From: Nanobdellati archaeon
GTDB lineage: Archaea > B1Sed10-29 > JAGVWA01
Direction of reading: 5' to 3'
DNA length: 64,000 nt
Assembly: GCA_018304505.1 (NCBI GenBank)
Contig: JAGVWA010000001.1
Coordinates: 68,363-132,362, forward strand
The position numbers and the translations under genes are program-made. Below the pieces are notes generated by a model. That model made no database searches. It was not told where the DNA came from and saw only the letters and a list, made by a program, of their open reading frames with translations. Below, one piece after another: positions 37,553 to 62,514 of the stretch (position 1 is its first letter; every line of letters starts with the position of its first letter).

Positions 37553-37957
37553 GCCAGTATAACGTAGCAGTCATTAAAAAGCCTTCGCCGTGGCATTGTT
37601 ACCGTGGTGTTGTTGCCGTAGGCGTTGTTGTATTGCATGCCTACCATGGGTCTTCGTCAGAGAGCCTATCAAGGATTGATCCTCTGCTGCCGCCAATGCC
37701 CCGACATTCTTTAGGGTCCAGCACAACGTACTGAAAGGCGGGCTTCGCCTTCTTTCCCGATTCTCCCGTTGTTTCTGGTTCTTGCTGATTCCACATAGAT
37801 TGGTCACCTCGACGTCTAAGAATTCTACATGGCTTTATAAACCTTTCGGAAATTGCAACAAGCTTGCTGCAATTGTTTATACGTCTCCGGGGGTATAAAG
37901 TTTTTTATATCCCAGGAAACCTAAGGAACAACAGCCACAAAATCAAAAGAACAACAT

Positions 37958-47287: not shown

Positions 47288-48076
47288 TTATCCTCCTAAA
47301 GACATGACATGAAACTCGCAAAATGTGCTGCCTGTGCCCCAGCACTTTGTCTCATTAACACTAATGGCTTCTGAGTTTTTAAACTTAACAAATGCCCCCC
47401 TCAAAAAGCCACGTATGTAATTGCACACGGCCCTGTTAACGTAGGGCATGCCAGCTGCAAATGCAGACTCATGGATTCGCAGCACTGCGTCCTTGGCGAT
47501 TTTTTGGTCGCCCTCAATTTTTTCCAGGATGCCGATGCCCTCTTCTTTGAATCTCTTTGCGACAACATCAATTAATTCATCCTTGCTATCTGGTTTAATT
47601 GATGACACAAATTCCCTCGCCTTCAATTCCCCAGCCTGCGATGCTACGCGCTCTGCCTGAAAGTCACCGGCGATATCATAAAGCGCTAAGTGCAGATTTC
47701 GCAAAACTGACACGTCGACGCTCGATTTCGTGGTCTTTCTTACAGATACATCTACATCAACGATATCCCCTTGCGACCCGAGGGACAGCACTTCCTTGGT
47801 GTCAAATTTTAGCCCCAGGGTTCTCTTGATGTCCTCAATCGCCGTAACCAAATCGACAGCAGCGCTAGCAATCTTTTCCTTCAGGTAATCAAAGCCCTGC
47901 CCTTCAACAAAGGCAGTGATCTTGCCATCGGAAAAAAAGAAGATTCTCACTTCATCAGAACGCCGCTCCAGGACAGTTTTTTCCTCGTCAGCATAATCTA
48001 GATAATCAAGCTTTGACAGCTTGCCTAAGTCAAGCTGATGCTTTAAATCATAGACCATCGCTTCTGATTTCAACAT
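47288..48076 (-). CDS. V4R (4-vinyl reductase-like) domain protein, probable partner of the KaiC-like ATPase
   Basis: C-terminal GMPYVNRAVCNYIRGFLRGAFVKF...ETKCWGTGSTFCEF is typical of V4R. Adjacent and co-directional with the KaiC-like gene. Confidence 0.5.
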   Translation of the reverse strand: MLKSEAMVYDLKHQLDLGKLSKLDYLDYADEEKTVLERRSDEVRIFFFSDGKITAFVEGQGFDYLKEKIASAAVDLVTAIEDIKRTLGLKFDTKEVLSLGSQGDIVDVDVSVRKTTKSSVDVSVLRNLHLALYDIAGDFQAERVASQAGELKAREFVSSIKPDSKDELIDVVAKRFKEEGIGILEKIEGDQKIAKDAVLRIHESAFAAGMPYVNRAVCNYIRGFLRGAFVKFKNSEAISVNETKCWGTGSTFCEFHVMSLGG

Positions 48077-48143
48077 ACTCACCTTTTGATACACGCACAC
48101 CTTTTGCTACAACCACACTCGCAACAGCCATTAACAGCACGCG

Positions 48144-48845
48144 CTACAAGAGCTCTTCTTGCAGAAGCACTATGCCTTCTGGCGTTATGTGGAATGGATA
48201 AATGTTCTTGCTGTGATCAGTGCCGCGCATTTTCAAGATCTCCAGGGCCCTGATGCGCTCGTTCTTCCGGGTAAAGTTGTACAGCACAATGACCCCGTCG
48301 GTAATAAACTCCTCAAGGCCGAACTCAATGCCGCCACGCTCCGAAAACGACCGCTCTGCAATTAATAAGGTTGTCACGTCCTGCTGCCCAAGGAACTCGA
48401 GCATGTTGAAAAGCCCGACCCTGAACTCGGTTTCGTTTTTGAAACACATGTGCATCAGGGACAGCGGGTCGATAACGATCCGCTTGACATTCTGTTGTAG
48501 TATCGTTGACTGCATCATATCCATCAGATTCTGGAAGTTGAACTTCTCCATTTTCAAGATGAACAAATCCTGGTTTTCAACAAGCTCCTTGAGATTCCAG
48601 CCAAAAGCCTGCCCCGTATCCTGGATTAAGCGCTCTGGCGTCTCTTCAAGGCTCAGGTAAGCGCCTTTTTGACCATGCTTTATAAAACCATTGTACAGGT
48701 ACTGCATTCCAAACATGGTTTTTCCAGAGCCCGGGCCGCCCATCACGAGCACGTTGTGTTTCCTAGGTAAGCCCCCATTGAGCATTTCGTCAAGCCCTTC
48801 GATACCCGTCAAAACTTTTTCAAGCGCCTTCACCATACTTGACAT
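48144..48845 (-). CDS. Single-domain KaiC-like/RecA-superfamily ATPase
   Basis: GIEGLDEMLNGGLPRKHNVLVMGGPGSGKT Walker A within the KaiC signature. Confidence 0.8.
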   Translation of the reverse strand: MSSMVKALEKVLTGIEGLDEMLNGGLPRKHNVLVMGGPGSGKTMFGMQYLYNGFIKHGQKGAYLSLEETPERLIQDTGQAFGWNLKELVENQDLFILKMEKFNFQNLMDMMQSTILQQNVKRIVIDPLSLMHMCFKNETEFRVGLFNMLEFLGQQDVTTLLIAERSFSERGGIEFGLEEFITDGVIVLYNFTRKNERIRALEILKMRGTDHSKNIYPFHITPEGIVLLQEELL

Positions 48846-48916
48846 AATGAACGCTTGATTAATAAAACCTACGCCATTGCCAAAAAATTTGGTCCAAAAC
48901 CCCTGTTCATTTATAA

Positions 48917-48928
48917 AGCTTTATATAT
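48917..48928 (+). promoter_or_regulatory. BRE/TATA promoter (aaagcTTTATATAT) upstream of the TBP gene
   Basis: Same consensus as the S-layer and GT2 promoters. GGAGG sits at 48990-48994. Confidence 0.45.
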
Positions 48929-49001
48929 GAAGACGTTCAGAACCAATGTGGGGTTTATAAATACCCAGAACAGCCCTAATTTTCAACGAGGAGGTAAAAA
49001 A

Positions 49002-49976
49002 ATGGAGATTGATTTTAACATCGTGAACATCGTAGCATCAGCCAATCTAGACTGCGAACTCGACCTTTACAGCATCGCGCGCGAAGTAGACAACGTGGAA
49101 TACGAACCAGAACAATTCCCCGGTGCAATACTGAAACTAAAGTCACCGAAGACCAGCCTGCTTTTGTTCAAAAACGGCAAACTAATATGCACAGGCGCAA
49201 GAAGCGAAGAAGACGTAGGAAAGGCTGTAAATCGGACCTTCGAGAAAATCAAGCACTGCGTCCGGGGCAAGGTTGCAGATAAACCAGACATACCATTCGA
49301 AATCGTGAACATCGTAGCTGCAGCCAACCTTGAAAAGGAACTTGACCTTTACGGCATCGCGCGCGAAGTAGACAACGTGGAATATGAACCAGAACAATTC
49401 CCCGGTGCAATACTGAAACTAAAGAAACCGAAGACCAGCCTGCTTTTGTTCAAAAACGGCAAACTAATATGCACAGGCGCAAGAAGCGAAGAAGACGTAG
49501 GAAAAGCCCTGTCAGTAGCCGTGGAAGCCATAAAAGACAACATCAAGGGCAAGGCCAAGGAGAAGCCCAAGGAGGAGCGCAAGCTGACCCAGGTCTCCAA
49601 GACCAAACAAGAGATCATAACACCAACAATCACCTTTGAAGGCAAGAAGAAACCCAAGAGGAAGGTTGTTGCCGCGCTAAAAGAAGCGGTGGCAAAACCA
49701 AAAGCAACGGCGGTAAAGCCAGTAGTAAGGGCAAAAGCCCCCAAGGCAAAACCAAAAGCAGTGGCAGCAGCAAAAACAAAAACAAAGGCACCGACAAAGA
49801 AACCAGCAATGAAGAAAAAAGCAGCCCCACGAAAAGCAAAGGCCACAAAGAAAGTGACGGCCAAAAAAACCCCCACGAAGAAAGCAGTAAAGAAAAAAAC
49901 AGCAACATCAAGTGCAAAGAAAAAGCCACAGAAAAAGGGGGCACTTTCACGGCTGTTAAAAGCGGTCCGCGGCTGA
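49002..49976 (+). CDS. tbp: TATA-box binding protein with near-identical internal repeats and a Lys/Ala/Pro-rich basic C-terminal tail
   Basis: Two TBP repeats (IVNIVASANL...EYEPEQFPGAILKL...LLFKNGKLICTGARSEEDV). A ~140-aa KAKPKA/KKT-type tail follows. Start trimmed to MEIDFN. Confidence 0.9.
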   Translation: MEIDFNIVNIVASANLDCELDLYSIAREVDNVEYEPEQFPGAILKLKSPKTSLLLFKNGKLICTGARSEEDVGKAVNRTFEKIKHCVRGKVADKPDIPFEIVNIVAAANLEKELDLYGIAREVDNVEYEPEQFPGAILKLKKPKTSLLLFKNGKLICTGARSEEDVGKALSVAVEAIKDNIKGKAKEKPKEERKLTQVSKTKQEIITPTITFEGKKKPKRKVVAALKEAVAKPKATAVKPVVRAKAPKAKPKAVAAAKTKTKAPTKKPAMKKKAAPRKAKATKKVTAKKTPTKKAVKKKTATSSAKKKPQKKGALSRLLKAVRG

Positions 49977-49988
49977 GCGGACAGCTCT

Positions 49989-50657
49989 TTATTTCTTATC
50001 CTTTTTCTCGTTCTTCACAAACCGGAAGCCCCCTGGCCTGCGAATGGCCTCGAGGCGCTTCTTGTACTTTTTCTCCTCTTCTTCTGACTTCTTTATTTCC
50101 TGAAAAATCTGCTCAACATTAAATGCCAACAGAAGCAGCTCGTACACATTTCCAAGCTTGTCAGGCCGTGCCTTGTATCTAACGAATTCCTCCCTGATGG
50201 CGTTGACTACGCTGCCAATAGTCGCTGTTTTTGGCATGAAGCCTATTATCCGCTCAAGTTCTTTGACCAACGCCTTTTTGTCATTCATGATCTCCTGCTT
50301 GGGGGCTATGTTCTGTACCGCCAGCATCGCAAACTGGTGGAGCTCTTCGATTGATACGTGCGCCGGCTCCTGCATTTGATACATGCCGGTGTAAAAGTCC
50401 TTTTCTGGCATGCTGCCAAAGATTTTTTTCGTCATCCTGCGGACATACAGCGCCTTGGATGAAAAATAAGTCGCCTCTGAATCAGAACCCTGCGCGCTGG
50501 CCTGAGCACTCATGTTTATGTAGTTGTCCGCGAGCATCGCAAAAGCGAAGTGCAAAACGTGGCGCTTCTCGACATCTTTGTAAACAATCAGGTTCTTTAG
50601 GTCCTCAGAATGCTTTTTCAAGTCTTCTATGAATTTATCAATAAGCGACGCATCCAT
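49989..50657 (-). CDS. hypothetical protein
   Basis: 222 aa, helical, with a basic C-terminus. Confidence 0.4.
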   Translation of the reverse strand: MDASLIDKFIEDLKKHSEDLKNLIVYKDVEKRHVLHFAFAMLADNYINMSAQASAQGSDSEATYFSSKALYVRRMTKKIFGSMPEKDFYTGMYQMQEPAHVSIEELHQFAMLAVQNIAPKQEIMNDKKALVKELERIIGFMPKTATIGSVVNAIREEFVRYKARPDKLGNVYELLLLAFNVEQIFQEIKKSEEEEKKYKKRLEAIRRPGGFRFVKNEKKDKK

Positions 50658-50704
50658 GGATATCTAAACTTACCAAGCAATTTAAAGATATCCATAAACT
50701 GGAT

Positions 50705-51550
50705 TCAATTGGATCCGCTGGCGGACAGCTCGAACAGCTTCTTAAAATAGTCCAGCTGCTCCTTGCCCAATCCGAGCAGGGGCGCCAGCACCAGCTTGCC
50801 CGAACCGTTCTTGATTCTCGAATAGGTTTGCAGGTCAGATGCTCCAGAAACAAGCGTTCCTAGGCGCGTTTGCTTAACATCCGCAAGGTCACTGTACCCA
50901 TGTACATCGATCTTGTGGCCATTCATATAATTATTCACGGATGCCTCCAATGCCGGCTTGCGGTTTTTCGCATAAAACACGGGAAGTGCTCCGCGCTTCA
51001 TCACCAAAAGCGCCGCCAGGGCATCATTCTCGTTGTCCAACAAAGCAGCAGCATGCTCTCCAGTGCCCATTGGCAGACCCCCTAGGCCCTTAAAGCTCTG
51101 CGTTGAAATGTAAGCCTTCCCTTTGTATATCTCGATCTTGATTTCAAATCCGGGGTTTTTCAAGTCGACCTTCGTATTGGTTAAGTCCTTAAGCGCCCCG
51201 CCGACGTGCCTTGATATTTCAGGCGACGTCATTTCCATTTCCTTTGAAAGCCGCTGCGTGTTCACTGCAAAGGTTTCCGCTTTACCCACATCTGATTCAT
51301 ATTGCATGCACGCCGCAGTAATGAGATCCAGGTTTGCCTCAACAACCGTGCATTGGGAATAGGTCGTCACGCCAAACACACGGCCAATGCTCTTCAACGC
51401 AAGCTCATAATTTTCAACGTAAACCGCGATGCGCCAGTACAAGTTACTCACCTTGGCTTCCGGCAGTACCATACGCAGGTTCCTCGCCAGCTGCGAAATG
51501 AATCTCTTTCTTACAGGCGGCGATTTTGTGAAGATTTCCCCGTGCCTTAC
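50705..51550 (-). CDS. ThiI-like THUMP-domain protein with degenerate PP-loop
   Basis: N-terminus MIIVRHGEIFTKSPPVRKRF matches ThiI. At the position where ThiI has SGGIDS, this protein has LLDNENDALAALLVMKRG. The C-terminus is short. Confidence 0.5.
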   Translation of the reverse strand, partial: VRHGEIFTKSPPVRKRFISQLARNLRMVLPEAKVSNLYWRIAVYVENYELALKSIGRVFGVTTYSQCTVVEANLDLITAACMQYESDVGKAETFAVNTQRLSKEMEMTSPEISRHVGGALKDLTNTKVDLKNPGFEIKIEIYKGKAYISTQSFKGLGGLPMGTGEHAAALLDNENDALAALLVMKRGALPVFYAKNRKPALEASVNNYMNGHKIDVHGYSDLADVKQTRLGTLVSGASDLQTYSRIKNGSGKLVLAPLLGLGKEQLDYFKKLFELSASGSN

Positions 51551-51632
51551 AATTATCATGTTCAAAATATGATCTTTTTCGTTAAAAAGCGACATGGCAA
51601 GGTTTATAAAGCACATTATAGAAAAGATTTGC

Positions 51633-52361
51633 ATGAACTCATCCGCGGCAGAGGTATTGAGAGAAATAGAGCAAGGGGAACTAGCTAAGAAGACCATCGA
51701 TCTGTACATTGAAATGGCCCTCATGGGAACTGAAATAGAGCCTAGCCAAAACTTTGCCCACTGCCATGACGTGGCAATTAAGGCAGTGGAAGACGCAGTT
51801 AACGAAGGCAAGATCTATGACAGATATGCCTTGCAGAGAATCTATGCGGCCGGTTTCTTTCACAATTCACGATTTAATCCAGAAGAAATAGGCACAAAAC
51901 TCAATGACAAATCAATAGCAGACATCATAAACAAAAAATCAAAACACTGGGAACACGTCGCGTTCGCAGACGCCCGCGAAGCCCTGAAGACTGACCGGAT
52001 ATTTTCTGTCGGCTTGTTTGAAAGAAAATACCTATGGCTCATTCCAGGCATGAGAACAACGATGCTGGAACGCGGTTTAGTCCATAAATTCAATCAACTC
52101 CCAGAAAAACGACGGAAGCAATTGATGCCAAAGGTTGAGGAAAAAATCAGGAGCCAGGAAATCCAGAACCAAAAGGCCCTCGGACGAGACAAACAGGCCC
52201 TTGATCAGCTCGCAAAAGACGCGGTTAAAAGCCGCATACAACGGACGAGGGAAAAAATCAGGTACCTGCGTGAGATCCACCCTGATCTTGTCGAAAAATA
52301 TGGGAACGACTTTTCAGAAGACGCTGCAATACTCTTCATTAAAATGCCTGACACAAAATAA
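51633..52361 (+). CDS. hypothetical protein
   Basis: Divergent from the ThiI-like gene; no motif. Start chosen at MNSSAAEV. Confidence 0.35.
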   Translation: MNSSAAEVLREIEQGELAKKTIDLYIEMALMGTEIEPSQNFAHCHDVAIKAVEDAVNEGKIYDRYALQRIYAAGFFHNSRFNPEEIGTKLNDKSIADIINKKSKHWEHVAFADAREALKTDRIFSVGLFERKYLWLIPGMRTTMLERGLVHKFNQLPEKRRKQLMPKVEEKIRSQEIQNQKALGRDKQALDQLAKDAVKSRIQRTREKIRYLREIHPDLVEKYGNDFSEDAAILFIKMPDTK

Positions 52362-57568: not shown

Positions 57569-57887
57569 ACTAATGAACCTCTTGTTATTTTTGCTGATCG
57601 GCCGTGCTTTGATGTTGCTTTGTTGCAGTTTTGCCGATTTTGCATGAATTATCCCATGGCGGTTTATAAACCTTTCGCTGGTTTAAACTAGTGTAAACTG
57701 GATAACGTTGCAAAATCTATATATGTTTCATGAGGCATAACTTAAAAGGATGATAAGGATCAGCCGCATCAGATTTATACGACGCAGGCGCGTGGTTTAC
57801 ATGCCAGTTGAAGAAGAGTTGGAGCTGGCAATGATTTTCAAGGAACTTGTCGAAGCAAAGGGGTACAAGTGCTCTGTACGGCTGGAG

Positions 57888-62367: not shown

Positions 62368-62514
62368 GCACCAGTAGTCTAGTGGTATGACTCGGCCTTG
62401 CCAACGAAGGGTTTCACCCTCTCGACACCTGAAGCGCACCTTCAGTAGCGCGGTGTTCATGATGAAATCTCAGGTAAACAGGCCGTGGCCCGGGTTCAAT
62501 TCCCGGCTGGTGCA
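62368..62514 (+). tRNA. tRNA-Gly(GCC) with 76-nt intron carrying box C/D-like motifs
   Basis: GCACCAG UA GUCUAGUGGUAUGAC U CGGCC-UUGCCAA-[76 nt]-GGCCG UGGC CCGGG-UUCAAUU-CCCGG CUGGUGC A. The intron contains CUGA and AUGAUGA. Confidence 0.7.

Follow-up and report, generated by a model that had tools for sequence, protein, structure and literature searches.

The gene at positions 49002-49976 (+ strand) of the window, as we call the whole 64-kb stretch of DNA analysed here, encodes a TATA-box-binding protein (TBP) of an uncultured Micrarchaeota-like (DPANN) archaeon, and the two halves of this protein are so similar, down to their codons, that recent intragenic gene conversion is the best explanation of their near-identity. 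In the textbook view, TBP arose by an ancient internal duplication and its halves have been diverging since, and their asymmetry has been invoked for the complex initiation of transcription in eukaryotes. Taken as a whole, the explanation that we propose, in which the lobes of TBP are homogenised by conversion, evolve in concert throughout the clade and function symmetrically, with a basic C-terminal tail acting as a DNA clamp, has in our estimate a probability of about 0.78. The protein as such is a known one; its homogenised lobes and its long basic tail were not found described in the literature.

Identification of the TBP gene

The open reading frame and its translation give a protein of 324 amino acids followed by a stop codon. 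The mechanical ORF opens at a TTG at 48855, but the start codon was placed at the ATG at 49002, since the orthologues begin at the position equivalent to it; a putative Shine-Dalgarno-like GGAGGT (48990-48995, + strand) lies 6 nt before this ATG. That the gene encodes a TBP, as a preliminary description of this DNA had claimed, is borne out by two matches to the Pfam family TBP (PF00352; E = 4.8e-57, bit score 190 with a cutoff of 22.9), by the predicted fold and by the archaeal TBP structures that are its closest matches; apart from PF00352, the Pfam search (E <= 0.1) gave a sub-threshold DUF3130 match alone. According to the codon table, the alignment and the AF2 model, repeat 1, the N-terminal lobe, comprises codons 1-94 (49002-49283, + strand) with F39, F56 and the stirrup EYEPEQFPG, and repeat 2, the C-terminal lobe, comprises codons 95-188 (49284-49565, + strand) with F133, F150 and once more the stirrup EYEPEQFPG (E129, E131). 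The saddle order S1-H1-S2-S3-S4-S5-H2 is predicted twice by AF2 within residues 1-185 at pLDDT above 90, and the elements of repeat 1 (E5-15, H22-28, E32-66 and H69-86) are modelled at the same confidence. When the PDB was searched using Foldseek, the best 44 hits were all TBPs and the top ones were archaeal, with a TM (target) of 0.85-0.9. In addition, phmmer aligned the protein with the closest solved structures, the archaeal 1mp9, 2z8u and 1pcz, at E = 1e-38 to 1e-42, both Phe pairs and the EYEPEQFPG stirrups included, and in this alignment F39, F56, F133 and F150 fall on the phenylalanines of their 'QFPG' and 'LLF/LIF' motifs. Like the window protein, these solved archaeal TBPs (S. acidocaldarius 1MP9, M. 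jannaschii 2Z8U and P. woesei 1PCZ/1AIS) are two-lobe saddles with the same order of elements, and they share with it about 40% sequence identity, the Phe pairs and the stirrup motif. No second TBP gene is present in the 64-kb window.

Two Phe per lobe kink the DNA in the established TBP-DNA structures and according to PMC7221094, which also describes glutamates of the C-terminal stirrup as contacting TFB. The putative TFB-contacting glutamates C.L3.2 and C.L3.4 are present in the window protein as E129-P-E131, and the same motif occurs as E35-P-E37 in the N-terminal stirrup. A conversion of the N-terminal stirrup into a 'C-type', TFB-binding stirrup was considered and ruled out because EYEPEQFPG is common to both stirrups elsewhere. 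Many ordinary archaeal TBPs, including those of Thermoplasmata, Thermococci and Methanofastidiosum, have the motif in both lobes, and two TFB-competent stirrups are thus not special to the window protein.

Near-identity of the two lobes

A tandem repeat with a period of 282 and 1.9 copies was detected in the TBP gene by TRF. At this spacing, 192 of 206 nucleotides (93%, i.e. 14 differences) are identical between 49020-49225 and 49302-49507, and 159 of 165 between 49061-49225 and 49343-49507; when the mismatch at 49061 is excluded, 49062-49225 and the copy 282 nt downstream agree at 159 of 164 positions (97%, 5 mismatches). Exact runs shared by the two repeats reach 78 nt. We regard the last of these stretches as the putative conversion tract, with its repeat 1 copy in codons 21-75 (49062-49225, + strand) and its repeat 2 copy in codons 115-169 (49344-49507, + strand), and with a looser zone, 93% identical, beginning at 49020 and 49302, respectively. 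This agrees with the preliminary count of about 5 mismatches in 170 nt at an offset of 282 nt (94 codons).

At the protein level, the whole repeats are identical at 72 of 94 residues and the structured core (residues 7-75 against 101-169) at 64 of 69, the five differences between the lobes being S13/A107, D17/E111, C18/K112, S24/G118 and S48/K142. The earlier statement that the half-domains are near-identical in protein sequence therefore holds for the core, though helix H2 and the linker (codons 76-94 against 170-188) show strong divergence and disagree at 13 of their 19 residues. The baseline with which it was coupled, namely that TBP repeats are about 30-40% identical, is too low for archaea, as over the same core columns the lobes of the solved archaeal TBPs match at 30-37 of 69 positions (43-54%), in contrast to 64 in the window TBP, and the median of 80 genome loci is 56%.

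The similarity extends to synonymous sites. The same codon is used at 57 of the 64 identical core residues, whereas the codon usage of the window itself would give 23.5 such sites (z = 9.1), and a count of 57 was reached in none of 200,000 simulations. Moreover, dS between the two cores is 0.16, while dS to the nearest orthologues is saturated. Among 171 TBP loci, a set consisting of the window gene and loci from genomes and metagenomes, the longest inter-repeat tract with at least 96% identity has a median length of 17 nt, compared with 170 nt in the window. In the NJ tree the N and C cores of the window TBP (P0001) are sister tips with a bootstrap of 81, and in the H2 region its two lobes are not mutual closest relatives (bootstrap 1%).

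TBPs of related archaea

Positional orthologues with 60-76% identity to the window protein are found in Micrarchaeota, Anstonellales and related DPANN (for example P0003, P0009, P0012 and P0018; loci L082, L085, L089, L084, L016 and L021). The gene next to TBP in the window (49989-50657, - strand), which is convergent with it and encodes a conserved 222-aa protein that has no Pfam match, serves as the synteny anchor; homologues of it lie beside TBP at L082, L086 and L089 (E = 2e-31 to 5e-34), and the order TBP, conserved 208-226-aa gene, ThiI/THUMP is common to the window and its relatives. This conserved neighbour shows that the TBPs compared are positional orthologues. None of the relatives among the matches listed in the genome, metagenome and encoding-contig searches was more than about 75% identical in protein. 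The best loci among the matches listed in a scan for the pattern EYEPEQF[P], which were used as a background set, are 63-66% identical, and the more closely related TBPs came from the encoding-contig search.

The lobes of the related DPANN TBPs are themselves 75-94% identical in the core, and the tracts in the positional orthologues are about 70-210 nt long and differ in location. At L082/P0003 a tract of 211 nt with at least 96% identity extends into H2, while the tracts measure 118 nt at L089/P0012, 108 nt at L085/P0009, 71 nt at the 5' end of the gene at L084/P0018, and 92-120 nt at L016, L105, L106 and L021. Altogether, 9 further distinct relatives in the set of 171 loci carry independent tracts of their own, whose positions and ages differ from those of the window's tract. 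Sister N and C cores were also recovered in the NJ tree for P0018 (bootstrap 88), P0015 (77) and P0105 (60), and the identity of the repeats within a protein exceeds the orthologous identity in 5167 of 6786 protein pairs. Three relatives, L088/P0004, L090/P0007 and L086/P0005, have no recent tract; their cores are 81-91% identical, yet just 23-48% of the codons are the same and dS is saturated. Such symmetric proteins with scrambled codons show that selection for symmetry operates in the clade. Judging from these sequences, the TBPs of the clade are subject to both concerted evolution and selection for symmetry. The near-symmetry seen at the outset in the window gene is real, but it is not peculiar to this gene, since its relatives are 75-94% symmetric and several carry tracts of their own.

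Origin of the near-identity

In the account that we favour, the two lobes stem from the ancient duplication of TBP, and a non-reciprocal homologous recombination, in which the direct repeats at a distance of 282 nt served as partners, recently transferred about 165-205 nt from one lobe to the other. The transferred segment extends from S1 up to the point where helix H2 begins, leaving H2 and the inter-lobe linker unconverted. Conversion recurs across the clade, with tracts differing in position, length and age; purifying selection keeps the lobes alike in protein where a recent tract is absent, and the TBP of the clade is held near two-fold symmetry by this concerted evolution. The preliminary description had offered gene conversion or re-duplication, of which the former is favoured by the homogenised synonymous sites and the latter is disfavoured by the divergence of H2 and the linker.

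In a re-duplication, one lobe would have been lost and the remaining lobe duplicated in tandem, which would likewise yield two near-identical units 282 nt apart, and the three-repeat TBPs found in the protein collection (P0002, P0013 and P0027) suggest that unequal exchange between TBP repeats does happen. We nevertheless consider this origin unlikely, because identity spans only 164-206 of the 282 nt and stops short of H2 and the linker, instead of covering the whole unit, because the lobes remain unpaired in the tree of the H2 region, and because the intermediate identity of the 41 nt at 49020-49060 is better explained by overlapping conversions of different ages than by a single duplication. 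Another explanation is that both lobes are tied to the same optimal protein sequence and that their nucleotide identity is incidental to codon bias. P0004, P0005 and P0007, which keep symmetric cores in the absence of a nucleotide-level tract, are in line with it, but codon bias predicts less than half of the shared codons observed in the window TBP, which points to gene conversion and not selection alone, and the low dS between its lobes contrasts with saturation in the same three proteins. Selection explains how symmetry is maintained and not the nucleotide identity of the window TBP; as the sole explanation it is refuted.

Close repeats with long exact shared runs could also cause an assembler to collapse or copy one repeat onto the other, so that the near-identity would be absent from the genome. 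The structure of the TBP gene is, however, the same in L001, an ENA contig from an independent assembly, which is 99.95% identical to the window over 4217 nt, with two differing bases, both at 49425-49426 (+ strand), where the window has AA (codon 142 AAA, Lys) and L001 has TC (TCA, Ser). Repeat 1 likewise has TCA at its equivalent position 48, so this sole difference lies in the repeat and equals the paralogous sequence, as k-mer mixing would also produce. Similarly, 3 of 3 differences between L082 and L083 inside the TBP gene show the paralogous base in L082, and assembler mixing is a possible source. The K142/S142 difference could thus reflect mixing of the two repeats by an assembler instead of a population polymorphism. 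As an account of the near-identity itself, however, an artefact is highly improbable: besides the agreement with L001, the copies can be told apart at 14 of 206 nt, their flanks have diverged and the reading frame is kept throughout. Furthermore, several relatives are symmetric in protein with scrambled codons, which no assembler error makes. The same repeats in close relatives had earlier been taken as a possible sign of an artefact or of annotation transfer; the relatives' tracts, however, differ in position, boundaries, length and age, and neither the samples nor the assemblers behind them are the same (MEGAHIT, SPAdes-type NODE contigs, Logan and NCBI MAGs), which argues for biology.

That the lobes stem from one ancestral domain and are more symmetric in archaea than in eukaryotes has been described (Kawakami et al. 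2017 via PMC7221094; Brindefalk et al. 2013, PMC3597702), and in these accounts the lobes diverge after one ancient duplication, whereas in the clade of the window they are being re-homogenised repeatedly. Gene conversion, concerted evolution and homogenisation are not mentioned in the text of PMC3597702, and in PMC7221094 gene conversion is unmentioned and 'concerted evolution' appears once. A literature search on TBP conversion, concerted evolution, symmetry and DPANN found no paper on homogenised lobes.

The basic C-terminal tail

Behind the second lobe, residues 189-324 (136 aa; 49566-49973, + strand) form a K/A/T/P-rich tail, in which 42 K, 25 A, 15 T, 12 P and 11 V were counted. Over residues 184-324 the shares are 32% K, 18% A, 11% T and 9% P and the net charge is +45, and residues 221-324 contain one acidic residue. 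The tail is predicted to be disordered, with a pLDDT of about 45-60 and no secondary structure in the AF2 model; its DNA has an extreme excess of A over T (AT skew up to 0.87) and carries short internal repeats, which are weak and of short period by TRF. A basic low-complexity extension of about 140 aa, as first described, is therefore present. The C-terminal domain of linker histone H1 is likewise rich in Lys, Ala, Pro and Thr, about 100-140 aa long, cationic and disordered, and the earlier label 'H1-like' is apt for composition and disorder only: sequence homology is not seen, and by Pfam the globular winged-helix domain of H1 (linker_histone) is absent from the window protein. The H1 tail belongs to a protein that binds the nucleosome linker, while the window tail sits on a sequence-specific transcription factor.

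No Pfam family was found in the tail, and a tail-only search of a collection of 5.8 billion proteins gave no match at E <= 0.001, although low complexity limits the power of such a search. Other proteins with a K/A/P tail, which the preliminary description had thought worth looking for, are absent from the 64-kb window, where the basic-segment hits are out-of-frame shadow ORFs, and a literature search found no paper on basic TBP tails. P. woesei TBP ends in an acidic run, and archaeal TBPs had initially been supposed to be usually acidic-tailed. In this clade the supposition fails: of the 117 relatives compared, 69 carry an N- or C-terminal extension that is basic and 4 one that is acidic, the tail of the window protein being among the longest. 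Unlike the window TBP, the solved archaeal TBPs show no long basic tail in the PDB alignments, and most of the related DPANN TBPs, for all their frequent basic extensions, are 180-210 aa long with a short or absent tail. The length varies widely among the relatives and the presence is patchy among close ones: the tail is missing from the syntenic orthologues P0003 and P0012 and from the close relative P0006, while the orthologue P0005 bears a similar tail of 138 aa and seven other DPANN TBPs bear tails of 60-85 aa. The tails of P0005 and the window protein are both of low complexity, which would mask any homology between them.

The tail is a lineage-specific low-complexity addition to TBP. By analogy with other DNA-binding proteins, it is most likely a polycationic, non-specific electrostatic clamp that raises the affinity for DNA or the residence time on it. 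In the actinobacterial HupB/MDP1, Ku and topoisomerase I, too, a disordered K/A/P-rich C-terminal tail is attached to a folded DNA-binding domain, is lineage-specific and varies in length, and such Lys-rich tails are reported to modulate DNA binding, compaction or processivity (PMC5676037, PMC2932737, PMC3553676, PMC7398561 and PMC5974015). These proteins form a class of analogues, not a homologous family; they belong to another domain of life and have clear PAKKA-type tandem repeats, whereas the repeats of the window tail are weak. It is a lesser but real possibility that the tail has no DNA-related role, being either a nearly neutral run-on, caused by stop-codon loss or by slippage in A-rich DNA and tolerated on account of its disorder, or a segment for RNA binding, condensates or protein turnover. 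Its unconserved sequence with no homologue found, its absence from P0003, P0012 and P0006, the short internal DNA repeats and the widely variable length would all fit this. On the other hand, an open frame of 136 codons has been kept in A-rich DNA, tails recur in P0005 and the seven other DPANN TBPs, and the bias of the extensions towards basic over acidic suggests that this DNA-binding protein has been under pressure in the direction of positive charge. The widespread basic extensions, of which the 136-aa tail is an extreme, suggest a DPANN-specific tuning of TBP-DNA affinity, for which the H1-like tails of nucleoid proteins in actinobacteria would be a parallel.

Symmetry and promoter recognition

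The re-homogenised halves in this clade show that the TBP duplication is not frozen, and that near-perfect symmetry is compatible with the function of TBP and probably favoured. For annotation and phylogenetics, it means that separate trees of N-lobes and C-lobes will mislead in this clade. As the DNA-binding underside and both stirrups are effectively identical in the two lobes, the window TBP should have no preferred orientation on a TATA box, and either stirrup could present the TFB-docking glutamates. The candidate box of its own gene is the palindromic octamer TTTATAAA. The polarity of the promoter would then depend wholly on how TFB reads the BRE; in other archaea, too, the TFB-BRE contact sets it (PMC7289017, citing Bell et al. 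1999). Natural symmetric TBPs would allow the contribution of TBP to the polarity of the pre-initiation complex to be separated from that of TFB-BRE. A bolder extension, which we put forward tentatively and consider doubtful, is that conversion and selection have driven the TBP of the clade to near-perfect two-fold symmetry and hold it there, with two equivalent TFB-docking stirrups and a palindromic TATA box read with no intrinsic polarity, and that in the tailed lineages the tail lets TBP double as a nucleoid-associated protein. If this were true, transcription in either direction, and at divergent promoters in both, could start from one TBP-TATA complex, TFB-BRE being the sole polarity signal, and the TBP of the clade would have come back secondarily to a state close to that of the hypothetical symmetric ancestor, of which it would be a living approximation.

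The octamer TTTATAAA at 48954-48961 (+ strand), 48 nt upstream of the ATG, is TATA-like and a likely candidate for the TATA box of the TBP gene. The divergent intergenic region upstream of TBP contains another copy at 48910-48917, and 14 copies are found in the 64-kb window against 1.43 expected, an excess of about ten-fold, with the sites being mostly intergenic.

Identification of the TBP gene and similarity of its lobes

The gene (49002-49976, +) is read without interruption through 324 codons to its stop and begins at an ATG, with the sequence GGAGGT upstream at 48990-48995 (+). In the automatic ORF list it begins earlier, at a TTG (48855); the starts of its orthologues correspond to 49002. 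The preliminary description had taken it for a TBP, which is confirmed by two matches to the Pfam TBP family (E = 4.8e-57). The AF2 model, based on an alignment of 29 sequences, has pLDDT >90 for residues 1-185 and shows the canonical strand-helix order twice, and all 44 of the 44 significant Foldseek matches of the model in the PDB are TBPs. Moreover, both lobes carry two DNA-kinking phenylalanines (F39 and F56; F133 and F150) and the stirrup motif EYEPEQFPG, the stirrup glutamates being conserved TFB/TFIIB contacts according to passages in PMC7221094. The idea that the N-terminal stirrup had turned 'C-type' was rejected, since many ordinary archaeal TBPs have EYEPEQFPG twice and its presence in both stirrups is not distinctive. 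In a collection of 5.8 billion proteins, the closest ones are metagenomic TBPs (57-76% identity over the TBP core); the named close homologues belong to Candidatus Micrarchaeota, Anstonellales and Diapherotrites/Iainarchaeum, and among the matches listed for GTDB species representatives the best TBP is that of a Micrarchaeota MAG (66%). These matches point to a Micrarchaeota-like DPANN archaeon as the source. An archaeal SRP RNA and tRNAs are also present in the window, which is therefore archaeal chromosomal DNA, and no second TBP copy is found in these 64 kb.

In the TRF analysis the gene shows 1.9 copies of a 282-nt period. Positions 49020-49225 and 49302-49507 are identical at 192/206 nt, and the inner tract (49062-49225 versus 49344-49507) at 159/164 nt, so the near-identical repeats at a 282-nt offset were correctly perceived in the preliminary description. 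In the protein, the two lobes share 72/94 residues over their whole length and 64/69 in the structured core, where the five differences are S13/A107, D17/E111, C18/K112, S24/G118 and S48/K142; residues 76-94 and 170-188, comprising the second helix of the lobe (H2) and the linker, are clearly divergent. The same core columns match between lobes at 34/69 (1MP9), 37/69 (2Z8U) and 30/69 (1PCZ) in solved archaeal TBPs, and 80 TBP loci of GTDB genomes among the matches listed have a median core lobe identity of 56% (range 45-83%). The baseline of 30-40% assumed earlier is thus somewhat low for archaea, although the contrast with the window gene is real.

Origin of the lobe identity

Of the 64 core residues identical between the two lobes, 57 have the same codon, versus 23.5 expected from the codon usage of the window (z = 9.1), and none of 200,000 codon-usage simulations reached 57. 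This excess rules out selection alone as the cause of the nucleotide identity. By the Nei-Gojobori method, dS is 0.16 between the two cores but saturated between the window gene and each nearest orthologue, so the homogenization occurred long after the divergence from every relative sampled. Two origins had been proposed, recent intragenic gene conversion or re-duplication; conversion is supported by the synonymous sites and the low dS, while re-duplication of the whole unit would also have included H2 and the linker, yet these have diverged. The lobe identity ends ahead of H2, and NJ analysis pairs the cores of the window protein as sister tips (bootstrap 81) but does not pair its H2 segments (bootstrap 1).

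An assembly artefact is ruled against by the independently assembled contig L001 (ENA, ERZ4903125, 4523 nt), which has the same architecture, is colinear with window positions 47732-51948 and differs from them only at two adjacent bases, 49425-49426. Codon 142 is AAA (Lys) in the window and TCA (Ser) in L001, the same triplet, TCA, being found at codon 48, its paralogous counterpart. By simple counting, a random dinucleotide change would have a chance of about 1 in 10^4 of both falling at this site and yielding the paralogous bases, and the difference is therefore either a conversion polymorphism or a mixing of the repeats by the assembler; whichever its origin, the two assemblies agree on the TBP architecture. 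The gene is a TBP with recently homogenized lobes and a long basic tail, and this is a real feature. Literature searches of limited coverage on gene conversion, concerted evolution or symmetry of TBP and on TBP in DPANN archaea revealed no account of homogenized TBP lobes or basic TBP tails, and conversion is not discussed in the two main treatments of TBP evolution within that coverage (PMC7221094 and PMC3597702).

After 4217 colinear nt, the last 306 nt of L001 (4218-4523) are AT-rich and wholly unrelated to the window from 51949 on; this contig end is either chimeric or records a strain-level rearrangement within the 255-aa ORF (51594-52361).

Recurrent homogenization in related TBPs

The TBP gene is convergent with a gene at 49989-50657 (-) for a 222-aa protein of no Pfam family, conserved in position in relatives. 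This neighbour (208-226 aa) is homologous in the window and in contigs L082, L086 and L089 (29-34% identity, E = 2e-31 to 5e-34), and a ThiI/THUMP gene usually comes next where the contigs reach that far; thus the compared TBPs are positional orthologues. A divergent gene at 48144-48845 (-) for a KaiC/RadA-superfamily ATPase (233 aa; PF06745, E = 7e-62) shares a 156-nt intergenic region with the TBP promoter, from which no recombination link is inferred.

Many of the best 120 protein matches have a core lobe identity of 75-94%, yet are 57-76% identical to the window TBP. The DNA of eight relatives was obtained and their lobes were aligned codon by codon, tract length being the longest stretch at no less than 96% lobe-to-lobe identity. 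The tract is 211 nt in P0003 (contig L082), where it extends into H2, 118 nt in P0012 (L089), 108 nt in P0009 (L085, mid-lobe) and 71 nt in P0018 (L084, 5' end, the remainder being synonymously scrambled). The relatives P0004, P0007 and P0005 have no recent tract: their cores are 91, 87 and 81% identical with the same codon at 48, 42 and 23% of identical residues, respectively, and dS is saturated in each. Over 171 TBP loci, including the window gene, L001 and two P0003 contigs, the median tract at this threshold is 17 nt. Tracts of at least 60 nt occur in 11/171 loci, which correspond to the window gene plus nine different relatives; each of them scores as closely related to the window TBP, and none comes from Thermoplasmata, methanogens or Woesearchaeota. 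In addition, lobe identity within a protein exceeds orthologous lobe identity in 5167/6786 protein pairs, and N/C pairs are nested inside subclades of the lobe tree. L082 and L083, contigs from two samples encoding the same P0003 protein, differ at eight nucleotides in some 4.4 kb; three of these fall within the 549-nt TBP gene, all synonymous, with L082 having the paralogous base in 3/3, possibly a second conversion polymorphism. Taken together, these comparisons indicate that gene conversion has been recurrent at several evolutionary depths and that purifying selection also holds both lobes to nearly one sequence where no recent tract exists. The window TBP is one case of a clade-wide pattern and not a one-off.

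Outside the window, the TBP-like proteins P0002, P0013 and P0027 (283-289 aa) have three TBP repeats rather than two. In P0013, repeats 1 and 2 have almost the same H2 (KVHESIKKIIKSLEKI / KVQESIKKIIKSLEKI), as expected of an unequal-exchange junction; an assembly error is also possible, each three-repeat protein being a singleton on a 1-1.7 kb contig.

The basic C-terminal tail

Among the 136 residues of the tail (189-324) are 42 K, 25 A, 15 T, 12 P and 11 V; the net charge over residues 184-324 is +45, with one acidic residue in the last 104. The tail has pLDDT of about 45-60 and no secondary structure in the AF2 model, and its DNA shows an extreme A-over-T skew with only weak short-period repeats. 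It matched no Pfam family, a homologue search with the tail alone found none, and a check for other K/A/P-tailed proteins among the window ORFs revealed no other such basic segment. The syntenic orthologues P0003 and P0012 end with the core, directly abutting the neighbour gene. P0005 has a basic tail of 138 aa (net +66), seven further relatives have basic tails of 66-85 aa, and an N- or C-terminal extension is basic in 69/117 relatives and acidic in 4/117; judged from these proteins, the window tail is thus an extreme case of a clade habit. The long tail likened to histone H1 is real and resembles linker histone H1 in composition and disorder only; beyond these, the H1 comparison is an analogy, given the absence of a Pfam family or homologue. 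As functional analogues, the tails rich in lysine on actinobacterial HupB/MDP1, Ku and topoisomerase I come closest, for which passages in PMC5676037, PMC2932737, PMC3553676, PMC7398561 and PMC5974015 report modulation of DNA binding, compaction or processivity. The window tail would add non-specific electrostatic DNA affinity.

A candidate symmetric TATA element

Archaeal transcription direction is set by TFB reading the BRE beside the TATA box, not by TBP, as stated in a passage of PMC7289017 citing Bell et al. 1999. A TBP with the same DNA-binding face and stirrups on both sides would seat equally on a TATA box in either orientation, leaving polarity entirely to TFB-BRE. The window contains 14 copies of a palindromic octamer, TTTATAAA, versus 1.43 expected (at most 5 in any of 100 shuffles), and nine of the 14 lie outside ORFs by crude ORF calls. 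Two copies, at 48910-48917 and 48954-48961, are in the divergent intergenic region upstream of TBP, the latter 48 nt before the ATG; further sites are at 37834-37841 and 57663-57670, and several copies have common flanks, e.g. GCTTTATAAACCTTTCG at 37834 and GGTTTATAAACCTTTCG at 57663. The octamer may be the TATA box of this genome, and its enrichment and location fit a putative role as a symmetric TATA element.

Elsewhere in the window, an Rfam tRNA match of 147 nt at 62368-62514 (+) (51.5 bits), not called by ARAGORN, is probably an intron-containing archaeal tRNA.
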